Virus record (IMG/VR): IMGVR_UViG_2617270978_000018
Source of the DNA: a virus
Lineage: Duplodnaviria > Heunggongvirae > Uroviricota > Caudoviricetes
DNA: 4,882 bases
Reading direction: 5' to 3' (one strand)
Part shown: positions 411 through 1,553 of the stretch, piece after piece
How positions within the stretch are numbered: position 1 is the first letter of the stretch
Layout of the letters: each line of letters starts with the position of its first letter
Notes under the pieces: model-generated
What the model was told of the DNA's origin: nothing
Database searches by the model: none
What the model saw: only the letters and a program-made list of their open reading frames with translations
Program-made: the position numbers and the translations under genes

Positions 411-1553
411 CTAAATCAGTAAGTTGGCAGCATCACCCGATATCGAACCAAATAAGAAAGAGCCAACCGCATATTTTTCTGTGGATACATTACCATTCCT
501 GCCTGCTGCCCCCTGCGGCCCTGCCGGACCACGAGGGCCTGCCGGGCCGGTTTTCCCCTGCGGCCCCGCGGGACCCACTGCACCAGGTGCGCCAGGTTCC
601 CCCCTGTCCCCCTTCGGTCCGGGGACTGCTGCCCGGGTTGCTGCCTCTTCTGCCTTCGTTTTTGCTGCCTGCACTTCTGCCATTACCGCTTTCACAGCCT
701 TTGGGGTTGCCGCTTTTGTTTCATCATCGCTGTTGGTATCGCTGCTCAGCTGTACAACACCTTTCTGTGATGTGCTGGCATCCGGAACACTGGCGACACT
801 GCCTGCGGGACCCGCAGGACCTGCGGGGCCGGTTTCTCCCCGAGGGCCTGCGGGACCTGCCGGACCTGTTGCGCCGGGTTCACCTTTATCCCCTTTCGGG
901 CCGGTTTGCCCTGCCGGACCCTGTGGTCCGGGTGGTCCGGCCTCTCCACGTGGGCCGGTGTCACCTTTCGGCCCCGGCGGTCCGCCCGGGTCACCTTTAT
1001 CGCCCTTCGGTCCCTGTGGACCTGTTTCTCCCCGTTCTCCCTTTGGCCCCGGCTCACCTTTTGGTCCGACCGCCCCCGTTGCCCCGGCTGGTCCCTGTGC
1101 CCCTGTGGCACCCTGTGGACCTGTGTCCCCCTTCTCGCCCGCCGGTCCCCGGGCATTCTCTGCCCGTTTCTTCGCTTCCTCTGCACTCGCCGCCGACGCT
1201 TCAGCACGCTTCAGGATTTCCGCTGCCACCGCTTCCAGCTCTGCAAGCGCTTTCGGGTAATACTGCGCCTCATCCTGTTCCATCAGAAATTTATTCAGCG
1301 TTCCCGGCTCAGAATCCGCCTTCACCAGAATGTCACCCACATATGACGGGGCGTACCCTTCCGTGTTCAGCGTCACCCGGTACCACCCCGGCTCCACATC
1401 AAAACTGTAACTGCCGGTTTCCCCCGGCTGCCCCTGCGCCACCGTGGTGACTATCACTGTCTCTGTGGTGCGTCGCGCTTTCAGCTCTATGGTGCATCCC
1501 GGCACCGGCTTCCCGGTGCCGTCCTTCAGCACGCCCGATATTCTGACTGTCAT
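411..1553 (-). CDS. stf: Side tail fibre protein (lambda Stf-like) with collagen-like repeats, 3'-truncated by IS1; probable pseudogene fragment. Native codons 438..1553; the last 8 codons plus stop (411..437) come from the IS1 inverted repeat
   Basis: The N-terminus [28 protein letters not shown]...EPGTLNKFL is clearly homologous to the recalled lambda Stf N-terminus ([28 protein letters not shown]...QPGTLNDFL). An internal motif [25 protein letters not shown] matches lambda Stf [25 protein letters not shown] (the phage tail-fibre repeat motif). There are long Gly-X-Y tracts. An RBS GGGAG lies 6 nt upstream of the ATG at 1553. The ORF ends ...[12 protein letters not shown], where GDAANLLI* is the translation of the IS1 repeat GGTGATGCTGCCAACTTACTGATTTAG. 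Confidence 0.85.
415..437 (-). repeat. IS1 left terminal inverted repeat (IRL, ~23 bp)
   Basis: Minus-strand sequence GGTGATGCTGCCAACTTACTGAT at the outermost end of the IS1 homology, matching the recalled IS1 inverted repeat. Confidence 0.9.
492..620 (-). repeat. Collagen-like Gly-X-Y repeat block 2 within stf (aa ~312-354; ~14 triplets)
   Basis: Translation [43 protein letters not shown], immediately upstream of the IS1 junction. Confidence 0.9.
801..1148 (-). repeat. Collagen-like Gly-X-Y repeat block 1 within stf (aa ~136-251; ~38 triplets with a single register break at G190-G191)
   Basis: Direct reading of the translation: [116 protein letters not shown]. The DNA is visibly GC-rich and has a 9-nt periodicity. 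Confidence 0.9.

Follow-up and report, generated by a model that had tools for sequence, protein, structure and literature searches.

Four architectures of 'EHEC prophage collagen-like protein', EPclA to EPclD, were described by Ghosh et al. 2012 (PMC3368898). Proteins of the EPclC type have the domain order PfN, Col, Pf2 and Col; a PCoil is usually absent, and the C-terminus is unrelated to PfC. The ORF-401 product of P-EibA, a protein of 479 aa with Col lengths of 117 and 75, was named as EPclC. [quoted passage not shown] The X position of the triplets of these proteins (EPclP) is occupied by Pro (48%) and Asp/Glu (36%), and the Y position by Lys/Arg (31%), Ala (21%) and Thr (20%) (PMC3368898, Table 4). 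Recombinant EPclA and EPclB form a trimeric, thermostable collagen triple helix, as judged by CD, AUC and EM, and the particles are dumbbell-shaped with a hinged stalk (PMC3368898). In Ur-lambda, twelve copies of residues 1-91 of the side tail fibre (Stf) make up a collar at the gpV/gpM junction, from which four trimeric fibres arise, and a hinge is located at residues 394-422 (PMC12617516).

The window, i.e. the whole 4,882-nt stretch of DNA analyzed here, carries all its genes on the minus strand. The ORF list and Pfam searches identified a lambda J-type tip attachment protein, of which the C-terminal 835 aa are encoded (2371..4878), and an Ail/Lom outer-membrane protein (1704..2303), followed by a 380-aa ORF that carries a collagen-like region (411..1553, from the ORF list) and by the InsA gene of IS1 (107..382, with PF03811 and PF12759 domains). 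The fibre gene thus lies downstream of J and lom, and the J-lom-fibre order of the window is the J-lom-stf order of lambda. Terminator-like hairpins with a T-run were found on the minus strand after J (2333..2352) and after lom (1571..1600; 13-bp stem, ending ~17 nt before the start codon of the fibre gene). Given these two hairpins, lom looks like an insulated 'moron' cassette, with J and the fibre gene on either side. No RNA family was detected in the window with Rfam at the gathering threshold. A Tfa-type assembly chaperone is absent downstream of the fibre gene, and the window has IS1 at that place. Intact loci have, in place of a Tfa homologue, a DUF4376 gene (PF14301; phrog_1141, 'tail fiber protein') downstream of the fibre gene. 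In intact relatives (1043..2146 of one locus; 3918..5096 of P-EibA, AF151091) the order is fibre gene, DUF4376 gene and then a YadA-like immunoglobulin-binding Eib gene, which places the window prophage in the P-Eib-like group. In the window, the DUF4376/Eib region is replaced or hidden by IS1. A different element, ISEc12 of the IS21 family (istA/istB), was observed just downstream of the fibre region in the NCTC9112 prophage (locus 371..2673), and also inside the genome of the infectious phage PhiR12_1 (locus 6759..9061), where it splits genes annotated 'tail fibers'.

The minus-strand ORF 411..1553 was translated and scanned for Gly register. Residues 136-354 of the 380-aa product, which correspond exactly to 1148..492 of the minus strand, are collagen-like. 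They are preceded by a PfN tail-attachment ('collar') domain and a short alpha-helical segment (aa 1-134; 1152..1553), assigned from PF08400 and from identity to lambda. Collagen block 1 is composed of a proximal segment of 18 Gly-X-Y triplets (aa 136-189; 987..1148), a register interruption of sequence GDPG-GPPG (aa 187-194; 972..995) in which G190 is the extra residue, and a distal segment of 20 triplets (aa 191-250) with a closing G251 (801..983). A spacer (aa 252-311; 621..800), identified by PF03406, contains the Pf2 motif (aa 264-288) followed by an Ala/Glu/Lys-rich helix, and leads to collagen block 2, with 14 triplets (aa 312-353) and a closing G354 (492..620). After block 2, alignment to intact alleles revealed only the first 18 codons of a C-terminal non-collagen region (438..491). 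Block 1 therefore totals 38 triplets (18 + 20) and block 2 has 14. An earlier note, made from the DNA letters alone, had proposed a collagen-like tail fibre shaft of the prokaryotic kind at 492-1148, with two Gly-X-Y blocks of about 38 and 14 triplets parted by a motif common with lambda Stf and with a single extra residue at aa 190-191; its counts, coordinates and the position of the extra residue proved exact, and the overall reading is supported. When the residues of the segment were shuffled 2000 times, the longest in-register Gly run averaged 3.6 and never exceeded 8, against a run of 21 in the real sequence. Pfam searches returned a full-length match to PF08400 (phage_tail_N, aa 1-134, E=6.9e-43), a match to PF01391 (Collagen, E=1.7e-26) and a match to PF03406 (Phage_fiber_2, aa 260-301, E=2.4e-16), and the three domains share one reading frame.

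Three other ORFs of 153-287 aa overlap the region, 424..1260 (+), 587..1450 (+) and 746..1207 (-), and one of them could in principle be the real gene, with the Gly-X-Y periodicity being a frame artefact. The probability of this is close to nil. A frame error, which the earlier note had itself thought unlikely, is contradicted by the continuity of the collagen frame with PF08400 and PF03406, and over 4600 homologues of the protein read in this frame carry a tail-fibre annotation. Of the three plus-strand frames (219 codons, 68% GC), two have no stop and one has a single stop; it is this poverty of stops in GC-rich DNA that keeps them open and accounts for the long overlapping ORFs, as the earlier note had suspected. 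An analogous antisense ORF, orf206b (locus 4748..5368), is annotated inside orf-401 in the lambda record and has a similar stop-poor frame; it is probably as spurious as 424..1260 (+) and 587..1450 (+). For annotation, the overlapping and antisense ORFs should be ignored.

In the collagen blocks, the X position is occupied by Pro (52%), Asp/Glu (27%) and Ala (15%), and the Y position by Lys/Arg (27%), Ala (25%), Thr (17%), Pro (13.5%) and Gln (11.5%), a composition that matches the EPclP values of PMC3368898, Table 4. The enrichment of Pro at X had been correctly noticed before. Charged residues, which had been assigned to X and Y without distinction, are present and are position-specific, the acidic ones being at X and the basic ones at Y. 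The closest phage match was P-EibA orf-401 (AF151091, from E. coli ECOR-9), with 98.6% DNA identity over all 1116 native bases. The EPclC features are present in the window protein, namely PfN (PF08400), the succession of Col (aa 136-251), PF03406 and Col (aa 312-354), and GDPGGPPG. There is no long PCoil, and Col1 begins at aa 136, directly after PfN. The C-terminus is lost from the window copy; the intact, 99%-identical allele of NCTC9112 has neither PF06820 nor any other C-terminal Pfam match.

The N-terminal domain is 53% identical over 131 aa to aa 1-129 of lambda orf-401, and the KGVVQLSS...TPKAVK motif region is 56% identical over 52 aa to aa 339-390 of lambda orf-401/Stf, so that the fibre motif between the blocks is indeed common to both proteins, in agreement with the PF03406 match. 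Among PDB sequences, aa 1-91 of the NCTC9112 allele matched the N-domain of Ur-lambda Stf (PDB 9e7m, E=3.9e-29) and aa 253-301 matched the tail fibre S of Mu (PDB 5yvq, E=6e-4). PhiR12_1 and its relatives, infectious phages whose recorded host is E. coli K-12 or C, carry a 99.3%-identical proximal fibre gene, which supports the assignment to a side tail fibre. The shaft reading is supported by the strict Gly periodicity, the location of the domains in one frame, the match in composition and the 98.6% identity to P-EibA orf-401. The J-lom-fibre order, the whole-triplet length differences and the IS1 junction in two assemblies (see below) also support this explanation, truncation included. From these comparisons of sequence, we consider it highly probable that 492..1148 codes for the shaft of an EPclC-type side tail fibre from a lambdoid prophage, an allele of P-EibA ORF-401, which would assemble as proposed below and is truncated by IS1. 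The native gene, as delimited by DNA and protein identity, is an EPclC-type, P-EibA ORF-401-like side-tail-fibre gene of 372 codons (438..1553, minus strand).

The length of the shaft varies between related prophages, as had been expected in the earlier note, and a comparison of triplet numbers in other genomes, which the same note had recommended, revealed that it does so by whole triplets only. Block 2 has 14 triplets in the window and 17, 22, 24, 26, 30-31 or 38 in close alleles. Among 112 full-length relatives, all length differences were whole triplets and protein lengths stepped in threes. The distal collagen segments of these relatives measured 11-20 and 22-71 triplets; complete triplets of the distal segment of block 1 numbered 11, 13, 20, 21 or 25 in relatives. 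The proximal segment had 18 triplets in 108 of the 112 relatives, a near-constancy that is subject to the bias of a set ranked by similarity to a query that itself bears an 18-triplet segment. The pairing of a constant 18-triplet proximal segment with distal segments of 11-71 triplets provides a lead for work on the tuning of fibre length. Relative to the NCTC9112 and P-EibA alleles, block 2 of the window has suffered an in-frame deletion of 90 bp, equivalent to 10 triplets. In the DNA alignment of the window with NCTC9112 the 90-bp gap is clean, with GGTCCCGC(A/G)GG at both edges, and GGTCCCGC constitutes an 8-nt microhomology beside the deletion, which fits slippage or a microhomology-mediated deletion. 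The deletion and its flanking microhomology support, within the preferred explanation, a gain and loss of triplets between short repeats. The length of the shaft would evolve as whole triplets are gained or lost in frame between short repeats, together with mosaic recombination. The 14-triplet allele was found in one piece in none of 5426 complete E. coli genomes, of which 150 had some match and 38 a match that covered at least 80% of the query.

The earlier note had also pointed to many near-identical direct repeats of 9-18 nt in the DNA, and had regarded them as good substrates for slippage and recombination. The 11-mer CCTGCGGGACC occurs 8 times with at most one mismatch, against an expectation of 0.18, so that this enrichment is real. 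The repeats are nevertheless less exceptional than implied, since no exact direct repeat of 16 nt or more exists and the longest measures 14 nt. When the protein was kept and the synonymous codons of the region were resampled (500 resamples), the number of repeated k-mers was not above this null for k>=11, and at k=9 the observed count was reached in 8 of the 500 resamples. The Gly codons are used almost evenly (GGT 17, GGG 14, GGC 13 and GGA 12). From the lack of excess at k>=11 and the even Gly codons, it can be deduced that the DNA repeats are largely a by-product of the repetitive protein. Diverged repeat families of 30-39 nt had 64-77% identity. A recent tandem-duplication array was considered and dropped, since Tandem Repeats Finder returned only weak arrays of 8-10 nt (scores <=44), exact repeats did not exceed 14 nt, and no enrichment was seen at k>=11. 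A role of the repeats as slippage substrates receives some backing from the sole indel checked at the DNA level, with its 8-nt microhomology, but the weight placed on them was overstated.

Concerning the register break, the earlier note had offered a kink or a recent indel, and the latter proved wrong. Sixteen of the closest alleles carry GDPGGPPG at that very position (aa 187-194), and two near variants, GDPGGPQG and GAPGGPPG, occur as well. The interruption is present in independent genomes (NCTC9112, UPEC-245U, P-EibA and PhiR12_1), and it was published as conserved in EPclB, EPclC and EPclD (PMC3368898). In addition, in a subfamily with two Pf2 motifs (P0019-type relatives, 580-717 aa), Col1 ends at ...GEPGGP/DATTAQKGIVQLSS, directly before the first Pf2 motif. 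Against this body of evidence, a one-codon insertion of recent date, or a sequencing error, specific to the window sequence is exceedingly improbable, even if the break amounts to a single extra Gly codon within a repetitive GC-rich region and is lacking in three relatives (P0017, P0032 and P0055), which have lost it through larger in-frame deletions. Its conservation across the closest alleles makes GDPGGPPG a signature of the family. A separate irregularity was noticed in P-EibA orf-401 (AF151091, a GenBank record of 2000), which reads GEAGPRPQGPAG at aa ~205-212, where all other alleles share one different reading. The loss of one residue in GEAGPRPQGPAG would make a second register break in AF151091, and could stem from a sequencing error in this old entry.

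The end of Col1 in the two-Pf2 subfamily corresponds to the site of the break in the window, hence the break coincides with a module boundary. The invariance of the proximal 18 triplets, this Col1 stop at GGP in the sister subfamily and the confinement of length variation to the distal segments point to a tentative idea, which we regard as possible though rather doubtful, that the interruption is a fixed module boundary: either a built-in hinge, or a preferred joint for swaps of collagen modules between prophages. If it were a hinge, a constant tail-proximal rod would be decoupled from an adjustable distal rod; if it were a joint for swaps, exchange between prophages would tune the reach of the fibre. 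In C1q and mannose-binding lectin, single interruptions are associated with a kink.

The hallmarks of collagen, with uninterrupted Gly runs of 18, 20 and 14 triplets and Pro at about half of the X positions, lead us to predict a three-chain, right-handed triple helix for the window protein, by analogy with EPclA and EPclB, the only ones in which it was seen experimentally. The Gly-Pro-rich stretch might instead be a flexible, disordered or polyproline-II linker. An AF2 monomer model of a full-length homologue with 97% identity (P0001, 20-sequence alignment) presents aa 133-281 and 308-389 as coil with a pLDDT of ~30. This model, with a mean pLDDT of 37 and a pTM of 0.23, was uninformative on the fold and was used for rough secondary structure only; at low confidence it places six strands followed by a helix at aa 98-132, and a second helix at aa 282-307. 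A three-chain fold is beyond the reach of a monomer model. Furthermore, a linker needs no Gly at every third residue across 18, 20 and 14 triplets, the indels among the 112 relatives all keep the triplet register, and the composition matches that of proteins that are experimentally triple-helical and thermostable (PMC3368898). We conclude that a linker is very unlikely, and retain the predicted triple helix.

The fibre gene, which the earlier note had treated as intact, is truncated by IS1 after codon 372. A partial IS1 (1..437, minus strand; PF03811 and PF12759, DNA alignment) runs off the window. The IS1/fibre junction is at 437/438, and the matches to E. coli chromosomes begin exactly at position 438. 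In the DNA alignment the window leaves the intact alleles right after ...TTCGATATCG and then reads GGTGATGCTGCCAACTTACTG. The sequence GGTGATGCTGCC / GGTGATGCTGCCAACTTACTG, which we take to be the terminal inverted repeat of IS1, abuts codon 372. IS1 supplies codons 373-380 (GDAANLLI) as well as the stop, and the truncation falls 18 codons after block 2. Intact alleles of 480 and 483 aa, with 97-99% protein identity to the window fibre, run ~108 aa further, and this C-terminal head is absent here. The head of the intact alleles belongs to no Pfam or PHROGs family, and is beta-rich in the low-confidence AF2 model. The identical 380-aa ORF and junction recur in two independent draft assemblies at NCBI, on contigs JMGW01000055 and JJLQ01000033. 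Both contigs differ from the window by a single mismatch and, like it, end inside IS1; their agreement indicates that the junction is real. An exact search of the GTDB representative genomes with a 32-mer that spans the IS1/fibre junction gave no match. The window ends inside IS1, and the 3' remainder of the fibre gene may lie just beyond the element.

Because the insertion of IS1 behind codon 372 has deprived the fibre of its head, it is in all likelihood inactive, and the gene in this genome most likely a non-functional remnant. It could be argued that the headless fibre is still made and used, for instance in particles or with complementation from fibre genes that other prophages in the cell provide. 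In favour of this, the start, PfN and both helix-plus-Col units are all retained, and an in-frame stop follows only 8 codons into IS1. In EPclA the helical PCoil acts as a trimerisation module, and complementation between prophages was discussed (PMC3368898). However, the C-terminal domain is the proposed receptor-binding part, and in EPclA it is also a trimerisation module (PMC3368898); nucleation of collagen helices usually starts at a C-terminal trimerisation domain (PMC11923368). We consider the use of a headless fibre unlikely, and in annotation the ORF should be entered as a pseudogene fragment, from a side-tail-fibre gene truncated by IS1.

The following organization is proposed for the fibre. 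Three chains would form one fibre, as judged from the homologues, and the PfN domains would dock as a collar on the junction of the tail tube and tip, by analogy with lambda Stf (PMC12617516). A short alpha-helical, coiled-coil-like segment (aa ~98-132) would lead into the first collagen triple helix, which with 38 triplets would be ~33 nm long at 0.286 nm per residue. The one-residue interruption after triplet 18 would probably bend the helix locally or make it flexible there. The Pf2 motif and the second short helix (aa ~282-307), ahead of block 2, would act as a joint. The second collagen helix, with 14 triplets here, would extend over ~12 nm and bear a beta-rich receptor-binding head of ~100 aa. 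Stability would be achieved without hydroxyproline through Pro at X and acidic-X/basic-Y pairs.

Ghosh et al. had already published, in 2012, the architecture together with its rules of composition, the polymorphism in length by whole triplets and the conservation of the interruption (PMC3368898). Beyond correct annotation, the importance of the locus is little, the closest sequence being one of that paper's own examples. P-EibA ORF-401 shares with the window protein the PfN-Col(18+break+20)-Pf2-Col arrangement, the J-lom-fibre context and the GDPGGPPG interruption. It differs in a Col2 of 24 triplets versus 14 in the window (the 90-bp deletion), in keeping the last ~108 aa, and in the downstream DUF4376 (orf-191A) and eib genes, which are not in the window. 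EPclB (Z1483/ECs1228 of the Stx2 phages 933W/Sp5), the experimentally studied two-Col representative, also has an N-terminal PfN, but carries a PCoil of ~109 aa between PfN and Col1 and a PfC (PF06820) C-terminus, whereas the window protein has no PCoil beyond the helical end of PfN and its intact alleles are without PF06820.

Lambda Stf (orf-401 + orf-314; PDB 9E7M) resembles the window fibre in its position after J/lom, the collar domain, the Pf2 motif and a jointed trimeric fibre; the Ur-lambda hinge at 394-422 lies just after the Pf2 motif (lambda aa ~355-390 by alignment). The shaft of lambda Stf (aa 102-393) is an Ala/Ser-rich coiled coil without Gly-X-Y, whereas that of the window is collagen, and lambda Stf has a long distal domain and the Tfa chaperone, whereas the intact relatives of the window have a DUF4376 gene downstream. 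Outside phages, Scl1/Scl2 of S. pyogenes and BclA of B. anthracis, a chain of which (1wck) was among the PDB sequence matches, have Gly-X-Y without hydroxyproline, a trimeric stalk with a globular head and polymorphism in triplet number, and C1q and the collectins have interrupted collagen stalks that carry a head. All of them differ in their flanking domains and in their biology, and the EPcl proteins are set apart from other collagen-like proteins by their composition, with ~50% Pro at X and a strict acidic-X/basic-Y rule.
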